DNA of 64,000 bases from an uncultured Candidatus Saccharibacteria bacterium (GCA_964574655.1 CAZNOH010000001.1:329852-393851), one strand, 5' to 3'; counted from the first letter of the stretch, positions 1 through 51,671 are shown. The notes: generated by a model not told the origin, from the letters alone. Numbers and translations: made by a program.

Positions 1-624
1 GATATCAAAGATATTGCGGATATTGAAAAAAAAATTGGCTATCCTTGCTTTATCAAACCAGCGAATATGGGATCTTCGGTTGGAATTAGCAAAGCGCATG
101 ATCGAAAAGAATTGATTGCAGGGATTGTTGATGCTTTTAAATATGATGCAAAAGTTTTGATTGAAAAAGCGGTTGAAAAACCAAGAGAGATTGAATGTGC
201 TGTTTTAGGAAATGAAGATCCAAAGGCTTCTGTTTTAGGCGAGATTTTTCCGTCTGAGGAATTTTATAGTTATGAAGCAAAATATGTTTCAGAATCAAAG
301 ACAGAAGCACCAGCAAAATTGCCAGATGAAATTTCAGAAGAAATTAAAAAACAAGCGATTAATGCTTTCAAGGCAGTTGATTGTAAAGGCATGGCAAGAG
401 TTGATTTTTTAGTGAATCAGGATCTATCAGAAATTTATATTAATGAAATAAATACAATTCCTGGATTTACATCAATATCAATGTATCCAAAATTGTGGGA
501 GAAATCAGGATTGAATTATTCTGAATTATTGGATGAATTGATCAAGCTAGCACTGGAAAGAAATAAAGAAAAAAAAGAATTGAAGACGAGTTTTGAAGAA
601 GCAGGAACGTGGCATAAAAAATAA
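1..624 (+). CDS. ddl: D-alanine--D-alanine ligase, C-terminal part (5' end outside window)
   Basis: Frame continuous from position 1; translation DIKDIADIEKKIGYPCFIKPANMGSSVGISKAHD...ATP-grasp Ddl C-terminal motifs (EPKASVLGEI, NEINTIPGFT). Confidence 0.8.
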   Translation, partial: DIKDIADIEKKIGYPCFIKPANMGSSVGISKAHDRKELIAGIVDAFKYDAKVLIEKAVEKPREIECAVLGNEDPKASVLGEIFPSEEFYSYEAKYVSESKTEAPAKLPDEISEEIKKQAINAFKAVDCKGMARVDFLVNQDLSEIYINEINTIPGFTSISMYPKLWEKSGLNYSELLDELIKLALERNKEKKELKTSFEEAGTWHKK

Positions 625-677
625 AATTAAAGATGTAGAGACGTTGCAATGCAACGTCTCTACAAAATTAGAATAAA

Positions 678-1334
678 ATGGCAGGAATTGAAACGGGACA
701 AAATTTGCAAAGAGATATCTCAAGTTCTGAACAAGAAAAGCAAGAGCCTGGTTTGGAATTGGTAAAAGGAGAAGAATTAGATGGTGTTGTTGAAGCAACT
801 AGTGATTTGGCTGGAAAAATGGAAAGAGATGAAAAAATTACTGGCGATGATGTGTTAAAATTAGACGAGGCGTTGGGAAAAGTGAGAGTTAATGTTGGTG
901 GCGAGATGATGACGATTGATGAAGTCAAAAATATTCCGGATTTACAAGAAAATTTGAAACTTTTTGATGAAATATTAAGAGGTTCTATTGTTGCGGAACA
1001 ACATTTAACATTTATTACCCTGAAAATTGCTTCATTATTAATTAATAATGAGTCTCGTGTTTCAATAGATATATATTTAGAAACTCTTGAAGAAATATCA
1101 GATGAGGTTGTACTTTTATTAAGTCAATCGGAATTAAATCTTTTTCTTGATAAGATTAGATATCTGTCTGATAAAGCATTGCAATATTTGCTTGATCGTA
1201 AAGAGGGGCTTGTTTCTTTAAGAGGATTGCGTGATTTGTCAGATCATTCTATAGAATTGTTAAGAAATTATTCAAAAAATAATATTATTGTTTCTCGCTT
1301 GATTAAAGAAAAAATGTTGGAAAATAAAAAATAA
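678..1334 (+). CDS. hypothetical protein; conserved N-terminal domain (PGLELVKGE...LAGKMERDE...LDEALGKV...VGGEMMTIDEVKNIPDL) plus Leu-rich C-terminus; paralog of 32893..33564
   Basis: Clear paralogy with ORF 32893..33564 over ~90 aa; sits between ddl and ftsQ-like gene. Confidence 0.5.
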   Translation: MAGIETGQNLQRDISSSEQEKQEPGLELVKGEELDGVVEATSDLAGKMERDEKITGDDVLKLDEALGKVRVNVGGEMMTIDEVKNIPDLQENLKLFDEILRGSIVAEQHLTFITLKIASLLINNESRVSIDIYLETLEEISDEVVLLLSQSELNLFLDKIRYLSDKALQYLLDRKEGLVSLRGLRDLSDHSIELLRNYSKNNIIVSRLIKEKMLENKK

Positions 1335-1339
1335 ATATA

Positions 1340-2215
1340 ATGGCAAAATTGGGAGGATATTATTATTCAAAAAAAAGAGATAGAGGACTTTCTTCTTACG
1401 CTAAAAAAATGCGGAAGATGAAAAAAAGGTCAATCCAAAGTTTAGGAAAAACTAAGCCAAATTTTGGTGTTTCTTTGCGAGGCAAAACAACGCTTATTGC
1501 TTTGTTAATTGCAGTGATAATTTGCGCTGGCATATTATTTTTTAGTAATTTTTTTGCAGTTAAAAAAGCGGTGTTGGTTGGAAACAACAAAATTAAAAGT
1601 GAAGATATTGAAAGTATATTGAAAGATGCTATTTCTGGAAACAGATTTGTTGTTTTTTCAGCAAGTAATATTATGTTAATTAATGATGGAAAGATAAAAA
1701 ACAAGATAATGGAAGAAATGCCGTTGATTGACAGAATCGAAATAAAAAGAATGTTGCCGAATACTTTGAAATTAAATATTCCTGAAAGAGATCCTTTTGC
1801 TATTTGGGAGACAGGCGGAAAAAAATATCTAGTTGATTCAAAAGGAAAAGTTTGTTATGAAATCAAAGATAATGTTAATATGGACTTGCCAATAATATAT
1901 GATAAGCAAAATAAAGCAGTTGAGGTAAAAGGAGAGGCAACTTTTCCGCAACAAATAAATGTTATTAGAAATATTTTGAATTCATTAAAAGATAAAACAA
2001 AATTAGAAGTTGAATTTGTATCTTTGCCAAATTCATTAGGCTTTGAAGTTGATGTAAAAACAAAAGACGGATTTATGGTTTACTTTAATACTGAAAGAAG
2101 CGTTGATTCTCAAATAAGAGATTTAAAAAGTGTTTTGGATAAACAAGTTGCTGAGCAAAAAAGTTCTCTTCAGTATATTGATTTAAGAGTTGAAAACTGG
2201 GTATACTATAAGTAA
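1340..2215 (+). CDS. ftsQ: FtsQ/DivIB-like cell division protein (basic N-tail, one TM helix, POTRA-like domain)
   Basis: Position downstream of ddl as in dcw clusters; TM segment TLIALLIAVIICAGILFF followed by KKAVLVGNNKIKSEDIESIL POTRA-like region. Confidence 0.5.
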   Translation: MAKLGGYYYSKKRDRGLSSYAKKMRKMKKRSIQSLGKTKPNFGVSLRGKTTLIALLIAVIICAGILFFSNFFAVKKAVLVGNNKIKSEDIESILKDAISGNRFVVFSASNIMLINDGKIKNKIMEEMPLIDRIEIKRMLPNTLKLNIPERDPFAIWETGGKKYLVDSKGKVCYEIKDNVNMDLPIIYDKQNKAVEVKGEATFPQQINVIRNILNSLKDKTKLEVEFVSLPNSLGFEVDVKTKDGFMVYFNTERSVDSQIRDLKSVLDKQVAEQKSSLQYIDLRVENWVYYK

Positions 2216-2279
2216 AAGGCAAAATTAAAAATTAAAAAGTAAAAAACGACAATTAAAAAGTAAAAATAAATTAAAAATT

Positions 2280-2657
2280 GTGGCGAAATTTAAAGAAAAA
2301 ATTGGTTTATTGAAAAAACATCCATATTTTAGATGTAAATTTAGTTTGATTATGCTTTTTAACAGTTTGCTCTTGAATTTAAGCCTGTGGATGTTATTAT
2401 ACTTTAGAATAAAGCCTTCAAATTTTCCTGTGCCTTTGCACTATTCAGTTTATTTTGGCATAGACAATATTGATTATTGGTATAAAGTATTTTTTGTGCC
2501 AGGAATAGGTGTTTTATTCATTTTTTTGAATTTGTTTCTTTGTATTTGGTTTTATAATAAAGAAAGATTTATCACGCATTTTTTAAGTGTGAATAATTTT
2601 GTTGTTCAAGGCGTTTTGTTTGGTTTTGTGATTCCATTAGTATTTATGCAAACATAA
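2280..2657 (+). CDS. small polytopic membrane protein, hypothetical (non-ATG start)
   Basis: Hydrophobic 125-aa ORF; no homology recognised. Confidence 0.3.
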   Translation: MAKFKEKIGLLKKHPYFRCKFSLIMLFNSLLLNLSLWMLLYFRIKPSNFPVPLHYSVYFGIDNIDYWYKVFFVPGIGVLFIFLNLFLCIWFYNKERFITHFLSVNNFVVQGVLFGFVIPLVFMQT

Positions 2658-2760
2658 TACGAATAAAAATACGAATAATGCGAATGTTGCGAATTACGAA
2701 TCGACGTATTTGCAATTCGTATCATTTGCATTATTCGTAAGGGCATTCGTATTATTATAT
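2657..2760. promoter_or_regulatory. 104-nt imperfect palindrome built from 5 forward CGAAT(A) units and 3 reverse ATTCGTA units, upstream of GT2 gene
   Basis: aatacgaataaaaatacgaataatgcgaatgttgcgaattacgaatcgacg / tatttgcaattcgtatcatttgcattattcgtaagggcattcgtatt read directly. Confidence 0.4.
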
Positions 2761-2761
2761 T

Positions 2762-4306
2762 ATGAGAGCAGATCAAATTAAAAATAGAAAAGATAGGATT
2801 TGTTATCGGCTGTATGAAATATTGCCAGGCTTTTTGTCTTGGGGAGTTTTGTTTGGTAGTATAGTTTTATCTTTCATACATCCTGTTTGGGTAGCTATTT
2901 TTATTATTTGTTTTGATGTTTATTGGTTGATAAAAGTGCTGTATTTGGCAGTGTATTTGCTTGTTTCTTATCGAAGGTTAAAAAAGAATGAAAAAGAAGC
3001 ATGGCTCACAAATTGCAAAAAATTGAATCCTACTGACAGGCCAAAATTTGAAGAGATCTATCATCTGGTTATTATTCCAATGGTTTTTGAAGATATTGAA
3101 ATTGTTAAGCAGACTTTTCAAGCTTTAATTTGTGCAAACTATCCGAAAGATAAGATGATTGTGGTTTTGGCAACTGAAGAGAGGGCAGGAATTTGGGCTT
3201 GCAAGGTTGCTGATCGGATAAAAGCGGAATTTGGCGATAAATTTTATCATTTTCAAGTAACAAAACATCCAGATAATATTATTGGCGAGTTAAAAGGCAA
3301 AGGATCTAACGAAACTTGGGCAGCAAAAGAAATTCGTAAATTTATTGATGAAAAAGGATTGTCTTATGAAAGTGTAATTACATCTGTGTTTGATGTTGAT
3401 ACTTGCGTACATCCAGAATATTTTGGCGTTTTGACTTATAAATTTTTGACTGTTCCTGATCATTTGCATGCTTCTTTTCAACCAGTGCCAATGTTTTTTA
3501 ATAATCTTTGGGATTCTCCGGCGTTAATGAGAATCGTGGCAATGAGTACGACTTTTTGGATGCTGATGGAGCAAGGAAGGCCAGAAAAATTGTATACTTT
3601 TTCTAGCCATAGTATGAATTTTAAAACTTTGACTGAAATTGGATTTTGGGAAACCGATGTGGTGTCTGAGGATTCAAGAATATTTTGGCAGTGTTTTAAT
3701 TATTATAATGGCAATTATCGTTGCGAGCCTTTGTTGATTCCTGTTTATATGGATACAGTTTTGGCAGGCACTTTTTGGCAAAGCGTTGTAAATCAATACA
3801 AGCAACAAAGAAGATGGGCATATGGAGCAGAAAATATTCCTTATGTTTTAACTAGATTTTCAAAAAATAAAAAGATTCCATTTTTTAAAAAGCTTGATCA
3901 TGGTTTTTGGGTGGTTGAGGGCATGTTTTCTTGGGCAACAAGCTCAATAATAATTTTTATGGCTGGCTGGTTGCCATTGTTTGTAGGTGGAGAGGCTTTT
4001 TCAAAATCATTATTAGCTCAAAATTTGCCTTATGTGACGCAAATATTAATGACAATGGCAATGTTGGGCATGATCGTTTCTGCTACTCTCAGCATGTTTA
4101 TGCTTCCTCCAAGGCCAAAGAGACATGGGCAACACAAAATATTATTTATGTTGTTGCAATGGATTTTATTGCCGATTTCAACAATTTGTTTGGGTGCTTT
4201 TCCAGCATTAGATGCGCAAACTAGATTAATGTTTGGAAAATATATGGGATTCTGGGTGACTGAAAAGTCAAGAAGGCGTGAGCCAGAAGTAAAAAGTCAA
4301 AATTAA
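2762..4306 (+). CDS. membrane-bound family-2 glycosyltransferase (processive, cellulose-synthase-like)
   Basis: N- and C-terminal TM helices; cytoplasmic domain with DxD-like (FDVDT) and QxxRW motif (QQRRWAYG). Confidence 0.55.
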   Translation: MRADQIKNRKDRICYRLYEILPGFLSWGVLFGSIVLSFIHPVWVAIFIICFDVYWLIKVLYLAVYLLVSYRRLKKNEKEAWLTNCKKLNPTDRPKFEEIYHLVIIPMVFEDIEIVKQTFQALICANYPKDKMIVVLATEERAGIWACKVADRIKAEFGDKFYHFQVTKHPDNIIGELKGKGSNETWAAKEIRKFIDEKGLSYESVITSVFDVDTCVHPEYFGVLTYKFLTVPDHLHASFQPVPMFFNNLWDSPALMRIVAMSTTFWMLMEQGRPEKLYTFSSHSMNFKTLTEIGFWETDVVSEDSRIFWQCFNYYNGNYRCEPLLIPVYMDTVLAGTFWQSVVNQYKQQRRWAYGAENIPYVLTRFSKNKKIPFFKKLDHGFWVVEGMFSWATSSIIIFMAGWLPLFVGGEAFSKSLLAQNLPYVTQILMTMAMLGMIVSATLSMFMLPPRPKRHGQHKILFMLLQWILLPISTICLGAFPALDAQTRLMFGKYMGFWVTEKSRRREPEVKSQN

Positions 4307-4388
4307 AAAATAAAAAGTTACAAGTAAAAATTAAAAAGAACTGCATTCGTTTTTTACTTTTGCCTTTTTATTTTTAACTTTTTAATTT

Positions 4389-6032
4389 ATGTTTGATATT
4401 ATAATCAGGAATGGGACTATTGTAGATGGGACTGGCAAAGAAAAATATCAGGCGGATATTGGAATTAACCGAGATACGATTTCAGAAATTGGAAATTTGG
4501 AAAATGCCAAGGCTTTGCAGCAAATTAATGCTAAGGATTTTTTTGTTTGTCCTGGTTTTGTTGATGTCTTAAATCATTCTGATAGTTATTTTAAGCTTTT
4601 CTCAAATCCAACTTTAGATAGTTTGGCTTTGCAAGGAGTAACAACAATTATCGGCGGTAATTGTGGAACATCTTTAGCGCCTTTATCTTCTAGCTTTACA
4701 ATGAATGAATTAAATAAAAGAATGGGCTTTAAGGCTAATGTAATTACTAATCCAGCTAAAAGTGAGACGTTGTTGAAATCAATGAGAAAATGGATTGATG
4801 TTTCTGGGATTAATATTAATTGGTCTACTCTAGATGAATTTCTTGCTGTTTTAGGTAATCAAGGTCTTTCATTAAATTTTGGTACGTTGATTGGTCATAG
4901 TTCTATTAGGAGAAATCTTGTAGGTGAAAGAATTTCTGATTTATCGACTGATGAACTTACTTTTTTTAAAGAGATGATTGCTGATTCAATTCAACAAGGA
5001 GCATTAGGTATGTCATGCGGTCTTTCTTTTAGTCATGAGAATTTTGTAGAAACTAGCGAGCTTATGGATTTAGCTTCGGTATTGCATGAGTCAGATTCCA
5101 TTATGTCATTTCATCTTCGAAATGAGGCAGAAAGAATTGTTGAATCAGTATCAGAAGCAATCGAAATTGCCAAGAGGAGCGGAGTCAGAGTCGAAATATC
5201 GCATTTTAAGATCAACGGAAAAGAAAATTGGGATAAGATTGACGAAGTTTTATCTTTAGTCGAAAGGGCGAGTGAAAAAGGCTTGGAAATAAATTTTGAT
5301 TTTTATCCTTATGATTTTGGCTGGGCGGTTTTTTATCAATTCTTGCCAAGCTCGTTATATATCGGCGGTAGAGAAAAAATGTTGAAGCGTTTATTAGACG
5401 AAAGAGAGAGACCGGCAATTCTAAATTCTTTGAAGGAAATTTCATTAAGAGTTTCTGATATGATAATTGCTTATAGTCCTTTTAATAAAGCATTTGTGGG
5501 CAGAAGTTTTTCTGACATTGCCAAATCTCAGGGAATAAGTTTGGAAGAAGCAATAATGATGGCTTTGATTGACTCGCGCGGCCATTTAATTTGTTTTGAT
5601 AAAGCATTGGATGAAAAGAATATTGTTAAACAGATAAAACATCCATTGGGAATCTTGTCTTCTGATGGCAGTGGTTTTTTTGAAGAAGAAAATAGAAATG
5701 GCCAGCTTGTTCATCCGAGATGTTTTGGAGCATTTACGCGTTTTTTGGGTAAATATGTTCGTGATTCTAGGTTTTTGGAATGGGAGAAGGCAATCCAAAA
5801 AATTACTTCAATGCCAGCTTTAAAATATGGAATAAATAATAGAGGTTTCCTGCAGGCTGGATTAAAAGCTGATATTGCAATTTTTGATCCAAATAAAATC
5901 ACTGATATGGCAACAATAGAAAATCCTTTTCAATATTCTCGGGGAATAAAATATGTTTTAGTGAATGGGAAGTTCGTAGTTAGCGATTCTAAACATACAA
6001 AAGAATTGGCTGGTGAGATAATTAGAAAATAA
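4389..6032 (+). CDS. amidohydrolase, N-acyl-D-amino-acid deacylase (D-aminoacylase)-like
   Basis: N-term MFDIIIRNGTIVDGTGKEKYQADIGINRDTISEIG...FVCPGFVDVLNHSD typical of D-aminoacylase family; first metal His apparently replaced (NHSD). Confidence 0.55.
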   Translation: MFDIIIRNGTIVDGTGKEKYQADIGINRDTISEIGNLENAKALQQINAKDFFVCPGFVDVLNHSDSYFKLFSNPTLDSLALQGVTTIIGGNCGTSLAPLSSSFTMNELNKRMGFKANVITNPAKSETLLKSMRKWIDVSGININWSTLDEFLAVLGNQGLSLNFGTLIGHSSIRRNLVGERISDLSTDELTFFKEMIADSIQQGALGMSCGLSFSHENFVETSELMDLASVLHESDSIMSFHLRNEAERIVESVSEAIEIAKRSGVRVEISHFKINGKENWDKIDEVLSLVERASEKGLEINFDFYPYDFGWAVFYQFLPSSLYIGGREKMLKRLLDERERPAILNSLKEISLRVSDMIIAYSPFNKAFVGRSFSDIAKSQGISLEEAIMMALIDSRGHLICFDKALDEKNIVKQIKHPLGILSSDGSGFFEEENRNGQLVHPRCFGAFTRFLGKYVRDSRFLEWEKAIQKITSMPALKYGINNRGFLQAGLKADIAIFDPNKITDMATIENPFQYSRGIKYVLVNGKFVVSDSKHTKELAGEIIRK

Positions 6033-6041
6033 TAAAATTTT

Positions 6042-6080
6042 CTACCCAACTTTAGTTGGGGTTCGGAAAGCTTTAGTTTT
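6042..6080. repeat. REP-like element: CTAC + hairpin CCAACTTTAGTTGGGG + TTCGGAAAGCTTTAGTTTT tail, immediately 3' of amidohydrolase gene
   Basis: Family members at 15097, 31798, 34267 with compensatory stem changes. Confidence 0.6.
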
Positions 6081-6134
6081 CATGACTTGGAAATTAAGAA
6101 ATTGACTAATTAAATTGGTTGGATTATTCTGATT

Positions 6135-6155
6135 CTACCCTGCTTATAGCAGGGG
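6135..6155. repeat. REP-like element CTAC-CCTGCTTATAGCAGGG-G
   Basis: CTAC plus perfect 7-bp stem hairpin, same orientation as 6042 copy. Confidence 0.5.
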
Positions 6156-6168
6156 TTTTGGTAAATTT

Positions 6169-6972
6169 ATGCAAAAAATAGTTTCTGAAAAATTAAGTAA
6201 ATATAAAAATCTAGTTCAAAGTTTGTCTATCGGTGACTTTGGGAGATTGAGATTCGGAGAGGATAAAAGCGAAAGTCATATAAAACAGATTATTAAGAAT
6301 AGAGAAGAGTATTTTAAAAATTTTGGTGTTGATTTGAAAAATGTGGTAATGCAGAATCAAGTTCATGGAACTAATATTTCTTTAGTTTCTAAAAATGATT
6401 GCGGAAAAGGTGTATTTGGTCCCAAAACTTATGTTAAAGATAGTGATGGATTAATTACAAAAGATAGAAATGTTTTTTTAGTGTGCTTTACGGCTGATTG
6501 CTTGCCCGTTTCTTTTTATGACCATAAGCTAAAAATTTGTGGCATTGCTCATTCTGGCTGGAAAGGAACTTTAAATAATATTGTTGGCAAAATGATTAAT
6601 GAATTTGAAAAATTGGGCAGTAATGCAAAAGACATTATTGTTTATATTGGACCAGCAATTGGCAAATGTTGTTATGAAGTGAGCAAGGCTAAGGATAATA
6701 GAATCGCAAGATTTGAAAAATTCCTTCTTGGTCTGAAGCCTGCCTGCTCGGTAGGCAGGGCCAAGCCACAAGAAGAGTTGATTATAAAAAAAGAAAATAA
6801 AGCATATATAGACTTGAAAAAAATCGTTAGAGTAGAATTATTGGATGCCGATATTAAGAAAGAGAATATTGAAATCTCGGAAATTTGTACTAGTTGTGAT
6901 GAGCGGTTTCCGTCTTATCATCGAGATTTGGAATGCAAGGCTGATTTGTTGAGCGTGATTGGGATGAAATAG
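6169..6972 (+). CDS. pgeF: PgeF/YfiH family protein (DUF152 purine nucleoside phosphorylase / polyphenol oxidase-like)
   Basis: FLVCFTADCLPVSFYDHKLKICGIAHSGWKGTL...IGPAIGKCCYEV conserved Cys/His motifs; contains in-frame 52-nt palindrome at 6724..6775. Confidence 0.6.
   Translation: MQKIVSEKLSKYKNLVQSLSIGDFGRLRFGEDKSESHIKQIIKNREEYFKNFGVDLKNVVMQNQVHGTNISLVSKNDCGKGVFGPKTYVKDSDGLITKDRNVFLVCFTADCLPVSFYDHKLKICGIAHSGWKGTLNNIVGKMINEFEKLGSNAKDIIVYIGPAIGKCCYEVSKAKDNRIARFEKFLLGLKPACSVGRAKPQEELIIKKENKAYIDLKKIVRVELLDADIKKENIEISEICTSCDERFPSYHRDLECKADLLSVIGMK
6724..6775. repeat. intragenic in-frame GC-rich palindrome (CTTCTTGG..CCTGCCT-GCTCGGT-AGGCAGG..CCACAAGAAG) inside pgeF
   Basis: Nested stems read directly; encodes LLGLKPACSVGRAKPQEE; contains GTAG. 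Confidence 0.5.
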
Positions 6973-6990
6973 CTTGCGAAAAGCTTGTTA

Positions 6991-7020
6991 TTCGGATATT
7001 ATGATATTAAGATATTTGAT
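6991..7020 (+). promoter_or_regulatory. TTCGRATATT-type tandem array (ttcGGATATTAtGATATTAaGATATTTGAT) upstream of murD
   Basis: GATATT repeated at 8-9 nt period; same motif at 15062, 15145, 21466, 35681, 40329, 2657. Confidence 0.35.
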
Positions 7021-7132
7021 AATCGAAACTCGGTTTTGTACAAAATTGAAAGATAAATGTGATTAAGAACAGCTTGATATGAATATTGTGTTGTTTGATT
7101 TAGTAAAAAACCGAGTATCTTAAGTTATCTCT

Positions 7133-8620
7133 ATGACAATAGAAGATCTAAAAAAGAAAAATATCCATGTTTTAGGCGTTTCTGGTGCTGAAGGAAGCGC
7201 GGTTTTGGAATTTTTGGCAGATAATGGCATTAAGAATATTACTGCTCATGATTTTTGCGATGAAGATAAATTTAAAGAAAGTTTTTTTTCTTTTCATGAT
7301 AGGTTGAATAAAAAAGAAAAAGAATCAGCTTTTGAAAAAGTCTTCCGCCTTCGCCAAGGCTTTGGCGGACAAGGAAAAATAAAGTTTAATTATAAAGATA
7401 CTTATCTTGACCAAGTTGAAAAGGCTGATCTTGTTTTTGTGCCACAATCTTGGTTCAGATATCCACAAAATAGCGTTTTGCATCAATACAAAGGTAGGAT
7501 TGAATTTTCCAATATTACTAAATTGTATTTTCAATTTTGTAAAGGAAAAATAATCGCAGTAACTGGAACTTCTGGAAAATCAACAACATCGGCATTAGTG
7601 AATGATGTAATGAAGAGAGGTTACAAATCAGGCAAAGTTTATTTTACTGGCAATGATCGCGAAAATGTCCAAGTATTAAATGATATTTTTGAAATAAAAG
7701 AAAATGATATTCTAGTTTTGGAAGTCAGTAATAGACAATTGATGATTGACTTAAAAAAAAGTCCTCATATCGGAATTATTACTAATATTTCGCCAAATCA
7801 TATGGATGATCATAAGACTTTTACTGATTACATTACGACAAAAAGAAGTTTGCTTAGATATCAGAAAAAGGATGATTTTGCGATTTTGAATTTTGATAAT
7901 GATATTACAAAAGATATCGGCTTAGATATTGATTCTACTGTTTATTTTTTTTCAAGAAAAGGCAGAGTTGATCGAGGCGCATATGTCAAATTTAATGAAA
8001 TAACTATTTTAGATGGTGCAAGAGAAAAAAGAATTTGTTCAGTGTTAGATCTCAAAATTCCTGGTCCACATAATATTGAAAATTCTTTGGCTGCAAGTTT
8101 AGTTGGCTATCTGATGGGAATTAATACAAAAGACATTAGAGAAGCGTTGTTAGGGTTTAAAGGAATAAAGTCTAGGTTGGAATTAGTAAAAGAAATTGAT
8201 GGTATTTCATATATAGAAGATTCTTCAGCTTGTAATCCTGAAGGGGCTGCTGTTGCTGTTTCTTCTTTTAGAAAACCGATGCTATTGATTGCCGGAGGTT
8301 CAAGGAAAAAACCTTATCCCGGAGAGTTTGATCGCATGGCTGATTCTGTAATTAATTCTAAAGTAAAAATGGCATTCCTTATTGGAGAAAGAGCAGAAAC
8401 AATAAAGCAGGCTTTGAAAAATTCAAGCATTAGATTTCAGAAAGCTGGTCCAATAATTAAAATTTGTGATAGCTTGGAGGATGCAGTGATATCTGCTAGC
8501 AAGTCAGCAAAAAAGGGTGATATAGTAATTATGTCTCCTGGTTGCGAAAGTTTTGGAATGTTTATTGATTATAGAGACAGAGCAAAGCAGTTTAAACGTT
8601 TGGTTAAAAACCTGGGTTAG
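7133..8620 (+). CDS. murD: UDP-N-acetylmuramoylalanine--D-glutamate ligase
   Basis: Mur ligase P-loop VTGTSGKSTTSAL, position before ftsW; carries in-frame palindromic insert at 7342..7378. Confidence 0.75.
   Translation: MTIEDLKKKNIHVLGVSGAEGSAVLEFLADNGIKNITAHDFCDEDKFKESFFSFHDRLNKKEKESAFEKVFRLRQGFGGQGKIKFNYKDTYLDQVEKADLVFVPQSWFRYPQNSVLHQYKGRIEFSNITKLYFQFCKGKIIAVTGTSGKSTTSALVNDVMKRGYKSGKVYFTGNDRENVQVLNDIFEIKENDILVLEVSNRQLMIDLKKSPHIGIITNISPNHMDDHKTFTDYITTKRSLLRYQKKDDFAILNFDNDITKDIGLDIDSTVYFFSRKGRVDRGAYVKFNEITILDGAREKRICSVLDLKIPGPHNIENSLAASLVGYLMGINTKDIREALLGFKGIKSRLELVKEIDGISYIEDSSACNPEGAAVAVSSFRKPMLLIAGGSRKKPYPGEFDRMADSVINSKVKMAFLIGERAETIKQALKNSSIRFQKAGPIIKICDSLEDAVISASKSAKKGDIVIMSPGCESFGMFIDYRDRAKQFKRLVKNLG
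7342..7378. repeat. intragenic in-frame palindromic element (TCCGCC-TTCGCCAAGGCTTT-GGCGGA-CAAGGAAAA) in murD
   Basis: Near-identical copy in murC at 12821..12860 with compensatory stem change; encodes RLRQGFGGQGK. Confidence 0.65.
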
Positions 8621-8624
8621 ATGT

Positions 8625-8700
8625 TTTAAATACAAAAAATTCTAAATTCTAAACACAAAATTCTAAATAAACTCAAAAAATTAAATTACAAAATTGCGAT
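8625..8700. repeat. intergenic AAATTCTAAAT / AAATTACAAAAT repeat cluster (inverted copies at 8735..8765)
   Basis: aaattctaaattctaaacacaaaattctaaataaactcaaaaaattaaattacaaaattg; same units occur in-frame inside secA. Confidence 0.5.
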
Positions 8701-8776
8701 TATGGCGTTGGTTTTGGTAATTTTTATTTTGTATTTTTAATTTATTTAGAATTTAGGATTTAGAGTTTTTAAAAGA

Positions 8777-9883
8777 ATGCAAAAACAAAAACCAGATTAT
8801 GTTTTTCTTGTCGTAGCACTAATTTTAGTGGTTTTTGGTTTGATTATGTTGTCTTCAGCAAGCGTTGTTTTGTCGTATCAGAATTTTGGCAATAATTATT
8901 ATTATTTTACTCATCAGCTTTTGTTTGGAGTGCTGATCGGATTAGTTGCAATGTTTGTTTGTTACAAAATTGATTATCATAACTGGAAAAAGTTTGCAGC
9001 ATTGATGTTAATTCTGACTTTGGTTTTGTTGGTCTTGGTTTTTATTCCAGGACTTGGTTTTGAATATGGAGGTGCGAAAAGATGGGTCAATTTGGGTCCC
9101 TTTGGGACCATTCAACCAACAGAAATTGCAAAATTAACTTTTCTTTTATATTTGGCAACTTGGCTAGACAAGAGATCTCAAGGAATAAAGGATTGGAAAT
9201 ATAGCTTTGCGCCATTTTTGCTTATGCTTGCTGTTGTTGGAACTTTAATAGTATTGCAACCCGATGTTGGTACAATGACAGTAATTATCTTAATGTCAAT
9301 CGTTGTGTATTTTGTGGCAGGAGGTAAAATAACGCATTTGGCAGTTCTGGGAGTGGGCGCTGTCTTGATCATGATGCTGTTGATAAAAATTGCGCCTTAT
9401 AGAATGTCACGTTTTACAGTGTTTTTAAATCCAGAACTAGATCCGCAGGGCATTGGTTATCAGATAAATCAATCTTTATTGGCCGTAGGATCTGGCGGAA
9501 TTTTGGGTAGAGGCTTGGGCAAGAGTATACAGAAACATAATTATTTGCCAGAGGCGTCTGGTGATTCTATTTTTGCTGTCATTGCTGAAGAAATGGGTTT
9601 TATTAGAATAATTTTCTTGTTATTACTTTTCTTATTTTTTACGTATCTTGGATTTAGAATTGCAAAAAGAGCGCCAGACATGTATGGAAAACTAATCGCA
9701 GCAGGAATTACAGCATGGGTAGCTTTGCAGGCTTTGATTAATATGTCAGCAATGATCTCTTTGATTCCCTTGACTGGCATTCCTTTGCCTTTTATATCTT
9801 ATGGTGGATCAGCGATTATTTCTTTGTTAGCGGCGTGTGGGATAATGTTGAATATTTCAAAGCAGTCGAGAGTTTCGGATTAA
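8777..9883 (+). CDS. ftsW: cell division protein FtsW (SEDS family)
   Basis: 10 TM helices, conserved SEDS motifs (GGAKRWV, SGGILGRGLG, PEASGDSIFAVIAEE). Confidence 0.8.
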   Translation: MQKQKPDYVFLVVALILVVFGLIMLSSASVVLSYQNFGNNYYYFTHQLLFGVLIGLVAMFVCYKIDYHNWKKFAALMLILTLVLLVLVFIPGLGFEYGGAKRWVNLGPFGTIQPTEIAKLTFLLYLATWLDKRSQGIKDWKYSFAPFLLMLAVVGTLIVLQPDVGTMTVIILMSIVVYFVAGGKITHLAVLGVGAVLIMMLLIKIAPYRMSRFTVFLNPELDPQGIGYQINQSLLAVGSGGILGRGLGKSIQKHNYLPEASGDSIFAVIAEEMGFIRIIFLLLLFLFFTYLGFRIAKRAPDMYGKLIAAGITAWVALQALINMSAMISLIPLTGIPLPFISYGGSAIISLLAACGIMLNISKQSRVSD

Positions 9884-9932
9884 ATTCTCTAATTCGATCT
9901 CTAATTCGCCTAATAAAATCTCTAATAATTTA

Positions 9933-9965
9933 AATCCTGATCTTTTTGACTTCAGGGTTTTTTTG
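9933..9965 (+). terminator. rho-independent terminator after ftsW (hairpin AATCCTGA...TCAGGGTT + T7)
   Basis: Stem-loop followed by TTTTTTT. Confidence 0.45.
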
Positions 9966-9980
9966 TATTATATTGGAATT

Positions 9981-11588
9981 ATGAAAATACTTTTAGCAGG
10001 CGGAGGAACTGGCGGGCATATTATGCCTATTTTGGCTACAGTAAAGCAAATAATAAGAATAAATCCTGAGACGCAATTTTTATGGATAGGAACGAAAAAG
10101 GGTCCGGAAGCAAGAATTGCTCGCGATAATAAAATTGAGTTTAAGGCTGTTTTGGCTGGTAAAATGAGACGCTACGTTTCATTTTGGAATCTTGTTGATT
10201 TGATTAAGTTGCCTTTAGGTGTTGTGCAAGCTTATTTTAAAGTAAAAAAATTCAAGCCAGATGTTTGTTTTAGCAAGGGCGGATATGTAAGCGTTCCAAC
10301 TGTTCTTGCTTGCCATCATTTTAAAATTCCAGTTTTATTACATGAATCAGATATAATTGCTGGCAAATCAAATTTGTTTATGGCGAAATATGCCAATAAA
10401 ATTGCTTTAGGTTTTGAAGAAGGCAAGCAGAGTTTTAAAGATTATTCCAATAAAGTTGTTATTACTGGCAATCCAGTACGTGATGAAATTTTGTCAGCAA
10501 ATAGAGAAAATGGTTTAAAAGATTTTAAATTGAATAATAATAAGCCAGTTTTGTTGATAATGGGTGGGAGCCAAGGCGCTCAAAGAATAAATGAATTAAT
10601 TGGTCAAGTTTTGCCCAAGTTTTTGGAAAAATGGCAAATTATTCATCTTGTTGGTCCAGAGCATGGAAATCAAATTTTAGGAAATCTGGGTGCATTGGAG
10701 AATGATTATCATGTTTTTAAATTTTTGGATGGAAAAAAGATGGGCGAGGCTTTAGCAGTTGCGACATTAATAGTTTCAAGGTCTGGTGCTAATAGTTTGG
10801 CGGAAATTGCAGCATTGGGCAGACCAGCAATATTAATTCCATATCCTCATTCTGCAGGCGATCATCAAAAAATCAATGCTGATATTTATGCTAAAAATAA
10901 TGCAGCGATTGTCTTGGATGAGAAGGATCTGACTCCAGAAAAACTATTGAAAGAAATTAATAATTTGTTAATAGATAAAGGAAAATTAGAAAAATTGCAG
11001 TTAGCGATGTTAAAAATGTCTAATAAAGAGGCGAATAGCAAGTTAACAACTGAAATTTTAGCTTTGGCCAAATCAAAAAATGTTTTGGCTAAAAAGAATA
11101 AGAAGATTTTAGTGTTTGTAGAGGGTACTATTTTGATGCAAAAAAAAGCTTTTGGTGAAAGTCGTGATAAAATTGTTTTGCAGGTTAAAAATAACGATCC
11201 TTCAATTGATGATTTTGCTAATTATATTATGATTGGCCAAGCAAATTTGAAATTAAAAAAATGGCAAGAGCAAGGCGCAAAAATTTTGTATTTAACTTCA
11301 AGAACTTTGGCTGAAGAAGTTGCTCAGATCGGTGAAGTCTTGGCTAAAAATAATTTTCCAGAAGGTGATTTATTCTATAGAAAAGAAAATCAGCAATATA
11401 AAGATATTGTTGAATATATAAAGCCAGATATTTTGATTGAAGATGATTGTGAAAGTATTGGTGGAATAAAAGAGATGGCTATTTCTCAAGTTAAGCCAGA
11501 AATTAAAAATAATATTAAATTAATTGTTGTTAAAGAATTCGCTGGCATTGATAATCTTGTGGATGAAATTTCTGATTTGATGAAATAA
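9981..11588 (+). CDS. murG: UDP-N-acetylglucosamine--N-acetylmuramyl-(pentapeptide) pyrophosphoryl-undecaprenol N-acetylglucosamine transferase with ~180-aa C-terminal extension of unknown function
   Basis: MKILLAGGGTGGHIMPIL N-terminus; GT28 motifs (HESDIIAGKSN, GGSQGA); extra C-terminal domain after ~residue 365. Confidence 0.75.
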   Translation: MKILLAGGGTGGHIMPILATVKQIIRINPETQFLWIGTKKGPEARIARDNKIEFKAVLAGKMRRYVSFWNLVDLIKLPLGVVQAYFKVKKFKPDVCFSKGGYVSVPTVLACHHFKIPVLLHESDIIAGKSNLFMAKYANKIALGFEEGKQSFKDYSNKVVITGNPVRDEILSANRENGLKDFKLNNNKPVLLIMGGSQGAQRINELIGQVLPKFLEKWQIIHLVGPEHGNQILGNLGALENDYHVFKFLDGKKMGEALAVATLIVSRSGANSLAEIAALGRPAILIPYPHSAGDHQKINADIYAKNNAAIVLDEKDLTPEKLLKEINNLLIDKGKLEKLQLAMLKMSNKEANSKLTTEILALAKSKNVLAKKNKKILVFVEGTILMQKKAFGESRDKIVLQVKNNDPSIDDFANYIMIGQANLKLKKWQEQGAKILYLTSRTLAEEVAQIGEVLAKNNFPEGDLFYRKENQQYKDIVEYIKPDILIEDDCESIGGIKEMAISQVKPEIKNNIKLIVVKEFAGIDNLVDEISDLMK

Positions 11589-11609
11589 AAAACCCAAAAA
11601 ATATTTGGG

Positions 11610-11843
11610 TTAGTGCAAAGTAGAAGCAAGCGCAAGTTGAAGAGCTAAATTAGCTAAAATCAGTCCAGTGACAAGCGTTGGTTCGTTGATGCGAAGGGTG
11701 AGCTGACTTGCAATGTTGGAAGTTCCTTGGAAACTGATAACTTCAAGGCAAGGTTTACCGTCATCGAAAAAATTCAGAGGATTATTTAGACTTTTGACGA
11801 GCTGTTCGAGTTGCTTGCTAGTCAATTTGATTGTTGCGAGCAT
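11610..11843 (-). CDS. small hypothetical protein with hydrophobic C-terminus
   Basis: Strong SD GGAGGGGAAATG upstream of ATG; GC content higher than neighbours. Confidence 0.4.
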   Translation of the reverse strand: MLATIKLTSKQLEQLVKSLNNPLNFFDDGKPCLEVISFQGTSNIASQLTLRINEPTLVTGLILANLALQLALASTLH

Positions 11844-11908
11844 TTCCCCTCCTTTTTTCTTTGCAGTTTGAAAAAGCAGGACAACTTATTATATTCTCTA
11901 CTTATATT

Positions 11909-13204
11909 ATGTCAATAAATTTAGAAAAAATCAAGAAGGCGTATTTTATTGGTATCGGCGGAATTGGTGTTTCGGCTGTTGCTAGAATTTTTATGGAAAA
12001 AGGAATCCAAGTTTTTGGATCTGATTTGGTTGAAAGTATAGTTACAAAAGATTTAATTAAAAAAGGTGCTAAGATTTTTATTGGCAAACATAATGCAAAA
12101 AATTTGCAAGATGATGTTGATTTAGTTATCTATACTGTGGCAACGGAAAATGATAATCCAGAATTAGTTAAGGCTATTAAATTAAAAATTAAAACATTAA
12201 GCTATCCTCAAGTTTTGGGTGAATTAACAAAAAATAAATATTTGATTGCAGTATCAGGTACTCATGGAAAGACAACGACGACGGCGATGATTGGATTAAT
12301 GTTAGTAAGAGCAGGCATGGATCCAACCGTGATTGTTGGATCAAACATCAAAGAATTTGGTGGTAATGCAAGATTGGGTAAAAGCGATTATTTTGTTATT
12401 GAAGCAGATGAATACAGAAGAGCATTTTTAAATTATAATCCAAAGATTGCAGTTGTTTTAAATATTGAATTTGATCATCCTGATTGCTATAAAAATTTAG
12501 ATGATGTGAAAGATGCTTTTGATATTTTTATGGCTAAGGCTGATTATATTGTTGATCATCCAGAAAATTTAATAAATGATTTAGATTTAAGATTAAAAGT
12601 GCCTGGAAAAGGTTTTTTGCTTGATGCGCTGTCTGCTCGTGAAGTTGGTAGAATTTTGGAAATTGATGATAAAATAGTTAAGGAAAGTTTGGAAAACTAT
12701 CAAGGTTCTTGGCGGAGATTTGAGATAAAAGGTGAAGTTAATGGAGTAATTGTCATTGATGATTATGCTCATCATCCAACAGAAGTAAAATCAACTTTGC
12801 AGGCGGCAAAAGAAAAATATCCGACCCGCCTTCGCCAAGGCTCCGGCGGGCAAGGTAAAAATATTATTTGTGTTTTTCAACCGCATCATCAAGATCGATT
12901 TAATGCATTGTTTGATGAATTTGTTAATTCTTTTAAAGATTGCGATAAATTAATTTTGACGGATGTGTATCATGTGGCAGGACGTGAATCGCGAATAAAC
13001 ACAAATGCTCTTCGGGTTACAAATAGCACAAAAAAAACCTCTAAAGAATTGGCTGAAAAAATTGGTGGAAAGGCTGTTTATGTTGGGTCTTTAGATAAGG
13101 CTTTGGAATGGCTGACTAAAAATGTTAAAGCTGGCGATGTTGTGATTACGATGGGAGCTGGAGACGTGACAAAAATAAGCGATGAATTGGTTAAGAAATT
13201 ATAA
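11909..13204 (+). CDS. murC: UDP-N-acetylmuramate--L-alanine ligase
   Basis: YFIGIGGIGVSAVARIF N-terminus, P-loop SGTHGKTTTTAM; in-frame palindromic insert at 12821..12860. Confidence 0.8.
   Translation: MSINLEKIKKAYFIGIGGIGVSAVARIFMEKGIQVFGSDLVESIVTKDLIKKGAKIFIGKHNAKNLQDDVDLVIYTVATENDNPELVKAIKLKIKTLSYPQVLGELTKNKYLIAVSGTHGKTTTTAMIGLMLVRAGMDPTVIVGSNIKEFGGNARLGKSDYFVIEADEYRRAFLNYNPKIAVVLNIEFDHPDCYKNLDDVKDAFDIFMAKADYIVDHPENLINDLDLRLKVPGKGFLLDALSAREVGRILEIDDKIVKESLENYQGSWRRFEIKGEVNGVIVIDDYAHHPTEVKSTLQAAKEKYPTRLRQGSGGQGKNIICVFQPHHQDRFNALFDEFVNSFKDCDKLILTDVYHVAGRESRINTNALRVTNSTKKTSKELAEKIGGKAVYVGSLDKALEWLTKNVKAGDVVITMGAGDVTKISDELVKKL
12821..12860. repeat. intragenic in-frame palindromic element (CCCGCC-TTCGCCAAGGCTCC-GGCGGG-CAAGGTAAAA) in murC
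   Basis: Homolog of murD insert; encodes RLRQGSGGQGK. Confidence 0.65.
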
Positions 13205-13232
13205 ATTTTAAAAATAAATTAATAAAAACAAA

Positions 13233-15059: not shown

Positions 15060-15061
15060 AT

Positions 15062-15090
15062 ATTCGGACATTGTGATATTCGGATATTAG
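15062..15090 (+). promoter_or_regulatory. TTCGRATATT-type array (attcggacattgtgatattcggatattagg)
   Basis: Shared motif family. Confidence 0.3.
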
Positions 15091-15096
15091 GAATCG

Positions 15097-15139
15097 CTAC
15101 CCAACTTTTGTTGGGGTTCGGCAAACTTTAGTTTGCAGG
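15097..15139. repeat. REP-like element CTAC-CCAACTTTTGTTGGGG-TTCGGCAAACTTTAGTTTGCAGG
   Basis: Member of the 6042 family, 3' of FG-GAP phosphoesterase gene. Confidence 0.6.
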
Positions 15140-15144
15140 AGGTT

Positions 15145-15178
15145 GAGATATTTTAATATTAAGATATTTGGGTATTAG
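15145..15178 (+). promoter_or_regulatory. GATATT tandem array (gagatattttaatattaagatatttgggtattag) immediately upstream of murB
   Basis: Shared motif family. Confidence 0.3.
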
Positions 15179-15183
15179 AAATT

Positions 15184-16122: not shown

Positions 16123-16175
16123 ATTTTTCAGGAATAAAAAAATCGCCTTTTGAAAAGCGATTAGAGAAAGTACTT

Positions 16176-16601: not shown

Positions 16602-16690
16602 TTAGGAACCTCGCAGTATTACCCGCGCTTCTGGCTTTATGTGGGCCAGTGTGTATATAGTATCATATTTTAATAATTTGTCAATACTTT

Positions 16691-30273: not shown

Positions 30274-30307
30274 TTAATTAGTTTATTAGTGATTAGGGTC
30301 GAGATTT

Positions 30308-30393
30308 CTACTCTGTCCATGGCAGAGGTAGTACAGATTGCATATAAAATTTAGTTTTTGACAATATCGAAACCCTTGCCATGGGCAAGGTAG
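30308..30393. repeat. two REP-like hairpins with CCATGG loops: CTAC-TCTGTCCATGGCAGAG-GTAG (30308..30331) and CCCTTGCCATGGGCAAGG-TAG (30373..30393)
   Basis: GTAG/CTAC flanks, 3' of aspS. Confidence 0.55.
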
Positions 30394-30421
30394 AATACTT
30401 TAAAAAATTAAAATAAAAATT

Positions 30422-31783: not shown

Positions 31784-31797
31784 ATATTACTGACATT

Positions 31798-31872
31798 ACG
31801 ACCCAACTTTTCACCCTGCGGGTGATCAACCGAAGGTTGAAGTTGGGGTTCGGCAAACTTTAGTTTGCAGGG
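31798..31872. repeat. REP-like element with nested hairpin: CGACCCAACTT-[CACCCTGCGGGTG..]-AAGTTGGGG-TTCGGCAAACTTTAGTTTGCAGGG
   Basis: Same tail as 15097 copy; 3' of preceding gene. Confidence 0.55.
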
Positions 31873-33564: not shown

Positions 33565-34280
33565 TAGTTTATAAAGTTAAATTAGAAAAATTTGAAGGAC
33601 CTTTGGATTTACTTTTAGATTTGATTGAAAAAGAAAAAATGGATATTACCCATGTTTCTCTTTCAAAAGTAACAGATGATTATCTAAAGTATCTAGAAAG
33701 TTCAGAGGGAATTAATCCAAGCATCTTGGCTGATTTTTTGCATGTGGCTGCTCAATTAATTTTAATAAAGTCAAGAAATCTTTTGCCAGAAATTAATTTA
33801 GGAACAGATGAGGAAGTGTCAGCAGCTGAATTGCAAGCTAGATTGATGCAATACAAAAAATATAAAGATTTGTCATTAAAGATTCAAGAATTATATGGCA
33901 AGAACATTTCTTTTGAGCAAAAATTTAGTATGCAAAAAATTGATGCTTTTTATCCTGGCAAGACTTTGGATTTTAAAAATATGAATTTAGCTTTGGTTGA
34001 TTTGTTAGGCAGATTTGAAAAGCTAGTTGTTTTGGAAAAGAAAATAATTAAAAAGGCTGTTTCGATTAAAGAAAAAATTGTTTATATAAAAAGTTTGATT
34101 TTAAAACAGGCAAAATTTAAATTTCATGATTTGATAAAAAATAAAAAATCAAAAACTGAAACAATTGTTTCTTTTTTAGCATTATTAGAATTAGCAAAAC
34201 AGCATTTTTTGTTTGTACAGCAAGACAAAATTTTTGGCGATATTTCAATAAATAATTCTTCGGATTCTACCCGGCTTTAG
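33561..34280 (+). CDS. scpA: segregation and condensation protein A
   Basis: KLEKFEGPLDLLLDLIEKEKMDITHVSLSKVTDDYLKYL. Confidence 0.75.
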   Translation: MIVYKVKLEKFEGPLDLLLDLIEKEKMDITHVSLSKVTDDYLKYLESSEGINPSILADFLHVAAQLILIKSRNLLPEINLGTDEEVSAAELQARLMQYKKYKDLSLKIQELYGKNISFEQKFSMQKIDAFYPGKTLDFKNMNLALVDLLGRFEKLVVLEKKIIKKAVSIKEKIVYIKSLILKQAKFKFHDLIKNKKSKTETIVSFLALLELAKQHFLFVQQDKIFGDISINNSSDSTRL

Positions 34281-34336
34281 CCGAGGGGTCGGAAAGCTTT
34301 AGCTTTCGTCACTTGTGAACTGAAGTTCACCGACCC
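34267..34336. repeat. REPIN-like doublet: CTACCCGGCTTTAGCCGAGGGGTCGG ... CCGACCCTTTGGCTAAAGCCAAGTAG (two inverted REP copies), overlapping scpA stop
   Basis: Second copy is reverse complement of first with compensatory changes; GTAG/CTAC at outer ends. Confidence 0.6.
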
Positions 34337-34370
34337 TTTGGCTAAAGCCAAGTAGAAATAAAAAAATATT

Positions 34371-35677: not shown

Positions 35678-35680
35678 AAA

Positions 35681-49237: not shown

Positions 49238-49513
49238 ATGTATTATCTTTATATTTTAGAATGCGCTGATAAGACTTTATATACTGGAATTACAACAGAT
49301 TTGAAGCGAAGATTGATTGAGCATAATAATTCTAAATTAGGTGCAAAATATACATGTGCTAGAAGACCAGTAAAATTAGTTTATTCTAAAAAATTTAAAA
49401 CCAGATCATCTGCTAGTAAGGAAGAAGCTAGAATTAAAAAATTGAAAAAATCGGATAAATTGGAATTGATTCGTAGGGGTTCAACCCTGTCATTCGACAG
49501 GGCAAGTATTTGA
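49238..49513 (+). CDS. GIY-YIG nuclease domain protein (YhbQ/UPF0213-like); 3' end overlaps REP element
   Basis: YYLYILECADKTLYTGITTDLKRRLIEHN...EEARIKKLK. Confidence 0.6.
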   Translation: MYYLYILECADKTLYTGITTDLKRRLIEHNNSKLGAKYTCARRPVKLVYSKKFKTRSSASKEEARIKKLKKSDKLELIRRGSTLSFDRASI

Positions 49514-49521
49514 ACCCCTAC
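49473..49521. repeat. REP element GTAGGGGTTCAA-[CCCTGTCATTCGACAGGG CAAGTAT]-TTGAACCCCTAC
   Basis: GTAG...CTAC ends; same family as 51063 and 51375. Confidence 0.65.
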
Positions 49522-51045: not shown

Positions 51046-51062
51046 AATAAATTTGGAGGGGA

Positions 51063-51087
51063 GGGGTTGAAAATATTCAACCCCTAC
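51063..51087. repeat. REP element GGGGTTGAA-AATA-TTCAACCCCTAC immediately upstream of RAYT
   Basis: Same family as 49473. Confidence 0.6.
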
Positions 51088-51095: not shown

Positions 51096-51671
51096 ATGGA
51101 ATATAATTTTTCAAAACGTCGTCGTAAATTAATTAGGTTGAAAGGATTTGATTATTCTAGCGATAATTGCTACTTTATAACAATTTGTACGAAACAAAAG
51201 GAATGTTTGTTTGGCAATATTATAAATCAGAAAATGGTATTAAATAATGCCGGAGTTATTGCAAAAAAATATTGGTTAGAAATTCCAAAGCATTATCAAT
51301 ATATAATTTTAGACGAATATATTGTGATGCCAAATCATATTCATGGAATTTTGGTGATCGATAAAAAATATCCGGTAGGGGTTCAATATATTGAACCCCT
51401 ACGCCAAAATAAATTTCAAAAAATTATATCTGGTTCAATTGGTGCGATCGTTCGTGGTTATAAAATCGGAGTGACAAAATGGTATAGACAAAATACAAGA
51501 TATAAAATTGTTTGGCAAAGATTATTTTATGACCACATTATCCGCGACGAACGATCGTTAAATATTATTCGAAATTATATTAAAGAAAATCCCAAAAATT
51601 GGTTATTTGATAGGAACAATATCGAGGACATCGGATTATTGAATGCAATAATTGAAATCAAAAAATTATAA
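51096..51671 (+). mobile_element. REP-associated tyrosine transposase (RAYT, IS200/IS605-like Y1 HuH transposase)
   Basis: IRLKGFDYSSDNCYFITICTKQKECLFG, HuH MPNHIHGIL, C-terminal WQRLFYDHIIRDERSLNIIRNYIKENP signature; REP copy embedded in-frame at 51375..51402. Confidence 0.75.
51375..51402. repeat. REP element GTAGGGGTTCAATATATTGAACCCCTAC inserted in-frame within RAYT CDS (encodes VGVQYIEPLR)
   Basis: Perfect 12-bp palindrome arms; frame checked (offset 279 from start). Confidence 0.65.

Follow-up and report, generated by a model that had tools for sequence, protein, structure and literature searches.

The window, the whole stretch of 64,000 nucleotides that was analysed, carries a family of short intergenic repeats in which two small hairpins follow the conserved foot TTCTAC. 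It is fairly probable that these repeats are miniature elements of the REP/REPIN type, lineage-specific and non-autonomous, which form hairpins and depart from the canonical pattern, and they have probably been mobilised by a Y1 HUH transposase. The sequence-only reading had called the repeat a REP family. The kind of element was well chosen and the polarity of the foot was not; the RAYT gene of the window, the REPs that belong to it, the inverted doublet and the second hairpin had been missed. The window is 32% GC, and nearly all of its genes, including secA, aspS, murB and scpA/scpB, lie on the + strand. This gene bias coincides with a GC skew of unusual strength and uniformity, which ranges from +0.21 to +0.29 in segments of 8 kb.

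Copies, anatomy and covariation of the units

The two-hairpin unit is 45 nt long and consists of TTCTAC, hairpin 1 (a 6-bp stem, e.g. CCCAAC ttta GTTGGG), the linker GGGGT(T)CGG and hairpin 2 (a 6-bp stem with a TTTA / CTTTAG loop). Its core, GGGT(T)CGGMAARCTTTAG, was found four times in the window, always on the + strand (at 6059, 15114, 31846 and 34285), compared with 0.12 occurrences in dinucleotide shuffles; the sequences reported earlier at 6042, 15097, 31798 and 34267 were as described. A covariance model was built from the four + copies, and the whole window was searched with the filters off, a search that had been proposed with the earlier reading. The four copies were recovered at 62-72 bits (E 1e-14 to 1e-17), together with a fifth full-length unit, 34357-34312 on the - strand (47 bits, E 9e-11), so that the 64 kb hold five two-hairpin units spread over four intergenic loci. 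These, and the one-hairpin relatives described below, are as follows.

6040..6084, + strand: two-hairpin singlet, TTCTAC-CCCAAC/GTTGGG-GGTTCGG-GAAAGC/GTTTTC (72 bits, E 2e-17), 8 nt past the stop codon of an amidohydrolase gene
6133..6156, + strand: hairpin-1-only unit, TTCTAC-CCTGC ttata GCAGG-GGT then TTTT, a weak match to the model (E 0.001)
15095..15139, + strand: two-hairpin singlet (69 bits), between an FG-GAP/metallophosphatase gene and murB, preceded by the GATATTCGGATATT tandem motif
30306..30395, both strands: two hairpin-1-only units flanked by TTCTAC...GGT and inverted to each other, behind aspS
31797..31871, + strand: two-hairpin singlet with the foot CGAC, not CTAC (62 bits), and a 30-nt insert in the loop of hairpin 1
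34265..34357, 34265-34310 on the + and 34357-34312 on the - strand: inverted doublet (64 and 47 bits), REPIN-like

Stem variation with pairing kept, already noticed for hairpin 1, was found in both hairpins; the second had been recorded only as conserved sequence. Hairpin 1 occurs as CCCAAC/GTTGGG, CCCGGC/GCCG(A)GG and CTTGGC/GCCA(A)AG, and hairpin 2 as GAAAGC/GCTTTC, GAAAGC/GTTTTC, GCAAAC/GTTTGC and GTGAAC/GTTCAC, the last in the - strand unit 34357-34312. The flanks TTCTAC and GGGGT(T)CGG and the CTTYAG loops are conserved across the units and the stems vary. All pair cells were paired in the five window units (60/60), with two-sided changes in 7 of the 12 pairs. When two units from a relative were added, the covariation persisted: 84 of 84 cells were paired and 8/12 pairs showed compensatory changes. 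Sliding the 3' partner by 1-3 columns as a control lowered pairing to 32-47% in the 5-unit alignment, and in the 7-unit alignment the slid controls fell to 32-48%. The alignments were fitted to the covariance model and hold seven units only; despite this small, model-fitted sample the covariation signal in both hairpins is clear.

A chance origin of the repeat was excluded by the shuffles, for the core as given above and for 5'-CTAC followed by a GC-rich hairpin, of which the window holds 7 against 0.1 in shuffles. The arrangement 5'-GTAG plus hairpin was found 8 times against 0.2. In canonical REPs, GT[AG]G lies 0-2 nt before the foot of the hairpin, on its 5' side (PMC6006769, PMC3733652). 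The two-hairpin units have CTAC 5' of the hairpin and GTAG 3' on the other strand, so the earlier claim that their GTAG is the REP landmark recognised by RAYTs is not supported as it stood, the polarity being reversed. The CTAC itself, attributed to all four copies, is present in three and replaced by CGAC in the copy at 31798. Like canonical REPs, the units are stem-loops with complementary stem variation, dispersed and extragenic, and they lie mostly behind ORFs, between unidirectional or convergent genes (in the window and at the doublet of locus L139, see below).

The three singlets share the orientation of the upstream gene and start 0-38 nt past its stop codon. A distance of at most 15 nt from the stop codon, as reported for all copies, holds for three of them, including the copy at 34267, which overlaps the scpA stop; the copy at 15097 lies 38 nt after. 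By translation, the element at 34265 supplies the last four codons (STRL) and the TAG stop of scpA.

The extra nested hairpin reported in the copy at 31798 proved to be a unique 30-nt pair of similar mini-hairpins (31811-31840; TCACCC tgc GGGTGA and TCAACC gaa GGTTGA), with no second copy in the window or in the relatives' loci and no family match. Nested hairpins in loops were observed here, in hairpin 1 of the 31797 copy, and in the double-foot REP at 49473 described below; from these two sequences, hairpin loops seem to be preferred insertion points.

At 34265-34357 two units abut in inverted orientation over 93 nt, and as ssDNA this doublet folds into one long hairpin (-29.3 kcal/mol, z -8.3). 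A second inverted doublet was found in a relative (L139 14329-14420), behind secA and between convergent genes; its ssDNA fold is also one long hairpin (-33 kcal/mol, z -9.6). Both therefore show the arrangement by which a REPIN is recognised, two inverted units folding into one long hairpin. Their internal order is the same: foot, hairpin 1, linker, A-rich hairpin 2, CGTC, the GTGAAC/GTTCAC hairpin, linker, hairpin 1, foot. Singlets outnumber doublets among the two-hairpin units.

The second copy type seen earlier at 6135-6155 is the hairpin-1-only unit at 6133, with TTTT after it. It looks like a terminator, and of the units within the scanned part of the window (1-20000) it alone is flagged by the terminator scan, at 6138-6154. 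Units of this type consist of TTCTAC, a 5-6-bp stem, a 3-5-nt loop and GGT; the flanks are kept and the stems differ by complementary changes. Those of the inverted pair at 30306-30395 read TTCTAC-TCTGTC cat GGCAGA-GGTAG on the + strand and TTCTAC-CTTGCC cat GGCAAG-GGT on the - strand. An orthologous pair lies in L126 (5742-5812) and is missing in L129, and a further inverted pair was found at L139 16671-16747. The common flanks TTCTAC...GGT suggest that the one-hairpin and two-hairpin units belong to one wider superfamily.

Occurrence in relatives and explanations of the units

Homologues of ScpB and MurB place the source of the window among the Patescibacteria (CPR). Two syntenic relatives were compared with the window, the genome of loci L126/L139 (211-kb contig) and the genome of loci L129/L130/L141. 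Identity between the window and the L129 genome is 88.7% (ScpB) and 79.9% (MurB); that of either to the L126 genome is about 83% and 75%. The intergenic gaps at three junctions were:

scpA-scpB: 90 nt in the window, with the element; 45 nt in L126 and 10 nt in L129, both without it
DUF2330 gene-next gene: 132 nt in the window, with the element (31797); 21 nt in L126 and 18 nt in L129, both without it
FG-GAP gene-murB: 124 nt in the window, with the element (15095); 18 nt in L139 and 54 nt in L141, both without it

Since the window and L129 are the closest pair among the three, with L126 more distant from both, one gain per site is more parsimonious than two losses, and the comparison points to the copies at 15095, 31797 and 34265 as insertions in the window lineage. 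The inverted-foot two-hairpin family would thus have been inserted at at least three junctions since the split from a relative at about 80-89% identity (two proteins). At the equivalent position, both the window and L141 lack the doublet that L139 has behind secA. Two genomes carry units, at different loci, so the family is older than the split of these genomes and has been inserted repeatedly; relatives that keep the gene order lack it at the orthologous junctions, which indicates that the units are dispensable at those genes. A search with the covariance model over ~76 kb of L126, L129, L132, L134 and L124 found no two-hairpin unit.

Outside the source lineage the exact core was not found in the metagenome and viral collections searched: the 22-nt core had six matches among metagenome contigs, all in unrelated coding DNA of 45% GC, and the exact core had none among viral contigs. 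A 17-nt degenerate core was too short to be of use, and its 117 matches in 596 Gb of genome contigs were attributed to chance, most being in coding DNA.

Neither flanking direct repeats nor a target-site duplication were seen at either doublet (n=2; the exact element ends are uncertain), a finding more in keeping with Y1 HUH chemistry than with a DDE transposase. This result bears on a reading of the units as MITEs of an ordinary IS, in which the 93-nt doublet would be the element, its arms the terminal inverted repeats, and a DDE transposase the mover. Such a reading would account for inverted arms of roughly 28-45 nt and for the absence of units from orthologous sites, but beyond the target-site result at the two doublets, no DDE transposase was found among the ~40 window ORFs scanned against Pfam, and a parent IS with these ends was not seen in the window or in the relatives' loci. 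Half-elements (the singlets) also outnumber doublets, and the stems covary, which is not expected of plain terminal repeats. We consider MITEs improbable.

The position of the units raises the further possibility that they are RNA structures of mRNA 3' ends, either stabilisers against exonucleases or terminators independent of a T-run, with selection acting on the transcript. The shared orientation of the three singlets and the upstream gene, and their start 0-38 nt past its stop, would suit this role, as would the covariation of both hairpins with one G-U pair tolerated on the transcribed strand only, and the situation of the L139 doublet between convergent genes, as for a bidirectional terminator; many REPs have been argued to act as RNA (Di Nocera et al., PMC3733652). 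The units are, however, not conserved at the orthologous junctions of relatives with the same gene order. Intrinsic termination was rejected: no T-run follows either hairpin of the two-hairpin units, and the copies at 6040 and 15095 were not flagged by the terminator scan, which covered 1-20000, those at 31797 and 34265 being judged from sequence. No Rfam family was matched by the repeat. With Rfam 15 only tRNA-Gln reached the gathering threshold in the window, and permissive scans of two copies gave only chance matches (microRNA-precursor, snoRNA, snRNA and sRNA models). The + strand is also the leading strand (GC skew +0.21 to +0.29), and a replication-linked mechanism fits the orientation equally well; the + strand being both transcribed and leading, orientation bias does not discriminate transcription from replication. 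An RNA role as the primary explanation is judged rather unlikely, and it is compatible with a mobile origin.

Conservation of the TTCTAC and GGGGT(T)CGG flanks and the CTTYAG loops while the stems vary would also be seen if the units were sites for a host DNA-binding protein (nucleoid-associated or concerned with topology, as for E. coli BIMEs), maintained by the host however they had spread. Presence and absence at orthologous sites and the inverted doublets are left unexplained by host maintenance, which we regard as very improbable.

For REP/REPIN-type elements, the explanation preferred here, the following course may be proposed. The 93-nt inverted doublet would be the probable replicative form and the singlets half-elements. 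A Y1 HUH transposase would cut and paste, or copy, single-stranded hairpins at the replication fork, and no target duplication would arise from such transposition. Copies would survive where they are harmless, just behind stop codons. Selection for recognition by the transposase, and possibly also for 3'-end RNA structure, would keep the stems paired during sequence drift.

The RAYT gene, its palindromes and other repeats of the window

A RAYT gene and its own double-foot REPs, of the form GTAGGGGTTCAA..TTGAACCCCTAC and with one copy in frame inside the gene, were identified in the window:

49473..49521, unstranded: double-foot REP whose loop contains a nested hairpin, just upstream of tRNA-Gln (ssDNA fold z -7.7)
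51060..51087, unstranded: degenerate double-foot REP (GGAGGGGTTGAAaatatTCAACCCCTAC), 8 nt upstream of the RAYT ATG, with an equivalent at L132 9967
51096..51671, + strand: RAYT / TnpA_REP gene, subclass 2.4, 191 aa, motifs NHIH, WQ (VWQR) and YIKENP
51375..51402, unstranded: double-foot REP GTAGGGGTTCAATatATTGAACCCCTAC inside the RAYT gene, encoding VGVQYIEPL, the disordered segment of the protein

The protein matched NCBIfam REP_Tyr_transpos (E 1.7e-13, 50.7 bits, below the equivalog cut-off of 80) and, weakly, Pfam Y1_Tnp (E 1.7e-3). A profile of 34 RAYT homologues compared with the PDB gave E. coli TnpA_REP 4ER8 as the best match (E 1.5e-5). The AlphaFold model (pLDDT 82; residues 93-103 disordered) was submitted to Foldseek, and the top 30 matches were all Y1 HUH transposases; 4ER8 had TM 0.53-0.60 and the lowest rmsd, 3.9 A. 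Residues H81, H83, W140 and Y161 are invariant across the 34 homologues. More than 6,700 homologues were found, many of them carrying the JGI name 'REP element-mobilizing transposase RayT'. Subclass 2.4 is defined by the HuH motif NH[IFV]H, the WQ motif, Y---NP and a length of about 194 aa (PMC6006769 Table 1), all of which agree with 51096-51671. Its hallmarks are double-foot REPs (5' GT[AG]G ... C[TC]AC 3') and in-frame REPs inside tnpA_REP (PMC6006769). The window holds a full REPtron of subclass 2.4.

In the relatives at L132 and L134 there is one copy of the gene, in a roughly conserved gene order. The palindrome inside it is perfect in both (at 10286 and 6059, respectively) through compensatory changes, and the encoded residues differ; these homologues are at 80% and 69% identity, and the forms of the palindrome are CAATATATTG, CAGAATTCTG and CAAAATTTTG. 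In-frame REP copy number varies across the family (homologues P0139, P0148, P0202 and P0208, alignment columns about 115-170), in agreement with Quentin et al. 2018 (PMC6006769). The double-foot REP at 49473-49521 supplies the last 13 codons and the stop of a GIY-YIG gene. Together with scpA, this gene illustrates that the elements rewrite gene ends, the stop codons of both being supplied by repeats.

Besides the GIY-YIG gene, the ftsX-RAYT region contains a PD-(D/E)XK/Cas4-like nuclease gene and a DUF7380/DUF4209 protein gene, and it differs between relatives. A 525-aa ORF at 44458-46035 (- strand) encodes a complete LexA (DNA-binding domain and S24 peptidase) fused to a C5 cytosine DNA methylase, and is adjoined by a Vsr mismatch endonuclease gene at 46132-46533 (+ strand).

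A REPIN is expected to include copies flanking its RAYT, and here it is the GTAGGGGTTCAA-type REPs that flank and sit in the gene; the nearest TTCTAC unit ends at 34357, about 16.7 kb away. The 5' GT[AG]G of canonical REPs is likewise carried by other families of the window, GTAGGGGTTCAA.. and GTAGAGACG... The long-range stem of the doublet, GGGGTCGG...CCGACCC (GGGGT(T)CGG/CCGACCC), resembles the stem of the RAYT REPs, GGGGTTCAA...TTGAACCCC, and within the window the 7-mer GGGGTTC is confined to these two families. As ~1.5 occurrences are expected by chance, estimated from base composition, the sharing is only a hint of a link between them. TTCTAC units were not found in about 34 kb around the RAYT homologues of two other Patescibacteria (L132, L134), and no RAYT was seen in 41 kb of the TTCTAC-bearing L126/L139, the RAYT-equivalent region lying outside those 41 kb. 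A link between the two-hairpin units and the RAYT at 51096-51671 is inferred; this RAYT may be their mobiliser, or it may be another one elsewhere in the genome.

Several other repeats were observed. A hairpin family with a canonical 5' GTAG foot occurs at 635-663, 38872-38900 and 62511-62539 of the window and at L126 14693. Its sequence is GTAGAGACG-NNNN-aat-NNNN-CGTCT(C/G)TA(C/T), in which the apical stem is variable and compensated. The copies touch or span the stop codons of genes on the + strand, and GTAG can itself provide the TAG that acts as the stop; an A-run, not a T-run, comes after.

A tandem 16-nt motif, GATATTCGGATATT(A), was always found on the + strand (window 6987-7016, 15059-15088, 21489-21502 and 35692-35705; L126 9955-9984; L139 14300-14329 and 14953) and often begins at a stop codon (TAGATATTCGG...). 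It adjoins three two-hairpin elements and also occurs between scpA and scpB in L126, where there is no element. It may represent an independent repeat, a site bound by a protein, or a context into which elements preferentially insert.

An ~80-nt long-hairpin repeat with the consensus tgtcatYcYga...gggatcccg ... cgggatYc...tcagRatgaca has three intergenic copies (17024-17116, 35596-35680 and 36296-36375) and is a candidate miniature element. Long, near-perfect, AT-rich inverted repeats are also intergenic (2658-2761, 8621-8776, 38311-38405, 41546-41631, 54295-54395 and 61620-61670); for those spacers that were folded, RNA fold energies range from -16 to -41 kcal/mol, and their sequence is unrelated to the GC-rich families.

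Comparison with known systems

Integron attC sites have RYYYAAC ... GTTRRRY ends at least ~57 nt apart and occur in cassette arrays next to intI. A reading of the units as attC sites was rejected: ACCCAAC/GTTGGGG fits the ends by eye, but only 4 nt separate the arms, GGC/GCC stands in this place in two units, and the units form no array. An integrase was not seen among the scanned ORFs of the window.

PATEs are non-autonomous elements derived from IS200/IS605, with subterminal hairpins, which are moved by a Y1 transposase without target duplication. Measured against this general description, the two-hairpin units differ in that no IS200/IS605 element with matching ends was seen.

REPIN-RAYT systems have been described mostly in Proteobacteria, Cyanobacteria and Bacteroidetes, and a full-text literature search for RAYT together with Patescibacteria returned nothing relevant. 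In the present case one genome of the Patescibacteria, which are reduced and symbiotic, holds a subclass 2.4 REPtron and at least three further hairpin-repeat families. If the RAYT moves the TTCTAC units, foot recognition by Y1 enzymes is more flexible than the 5' GTAG rule; if it does not, some other mobilising activity exists. It is conceivable, and on balance doubtful, that the TTCTAC-footed units (one- or two-hairpin, singlet or doublet) are a distinct class with a foot polarity opposite to that of every described REP family, kept in streamlined Patescibacteria. Their mover would then be a subclass 2.4 RAYT with a non-canonical foot or an unrecognised enzyme, and the units might double as mRNA 3'-end structures where T-run terminators are sparse.

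The closest likeness for the RAYT is to the subclass 2.4 REPtrons (Bertels group 4 RAYT; PMC6006769), which the window RAYT and the palindromes at 49473, 51060 and 51375 match in every tested respect. This likeness concerns the neighbouring GTAGGGGTTCAA family; what the two-hairpin units have in common with it is limited to the GGGGT(T)C core.

Di Nocera et al. 2013 (PMC3733652) record REPs that are fused to an unrelated stem-loop, REP dimers, and REPs located behind ORFs or across gene ends. The double-palindromic REP plus stem-loop elements of P. putida and P. fluorescens (PMC3733652) resemble the present family in having two stem-loops, in being dispersed and multicopy, and in forming inverted pairs. 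Unlike it, the Pseudomonas double palindromes are found flanking the transposase gene and include a canonical GTAG unit in degenerate form (PMC3733652), neither of which was seen for the two-hairpin family.

The general features of REP, BIME and REPIN sequences (Nunvar 2010; PMC3116915; PMC3733652) recur in the window. The units are short extragenic palindromes with a conserved foot and complementary stem variation, present as singlets and as inverted dimers that fold into long hairpins, and they lie behind ORFs or over gene ends. Several lineage-specific families occur together in one genome, which also encodes a RAYT. The differences are that the foot 5' of the hairpin is TTCTAC and not the canonical 5' GT[AG]G, that each unit is built of two hairpins with a conserved linker, that no copy flanks the RAYT, and that the host is a 32% GC member of the Patescibacteria and not a proteobacterium or cyanobacterium. 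The family is an unusual member of the known REP/REPIN class and is not new in kind.
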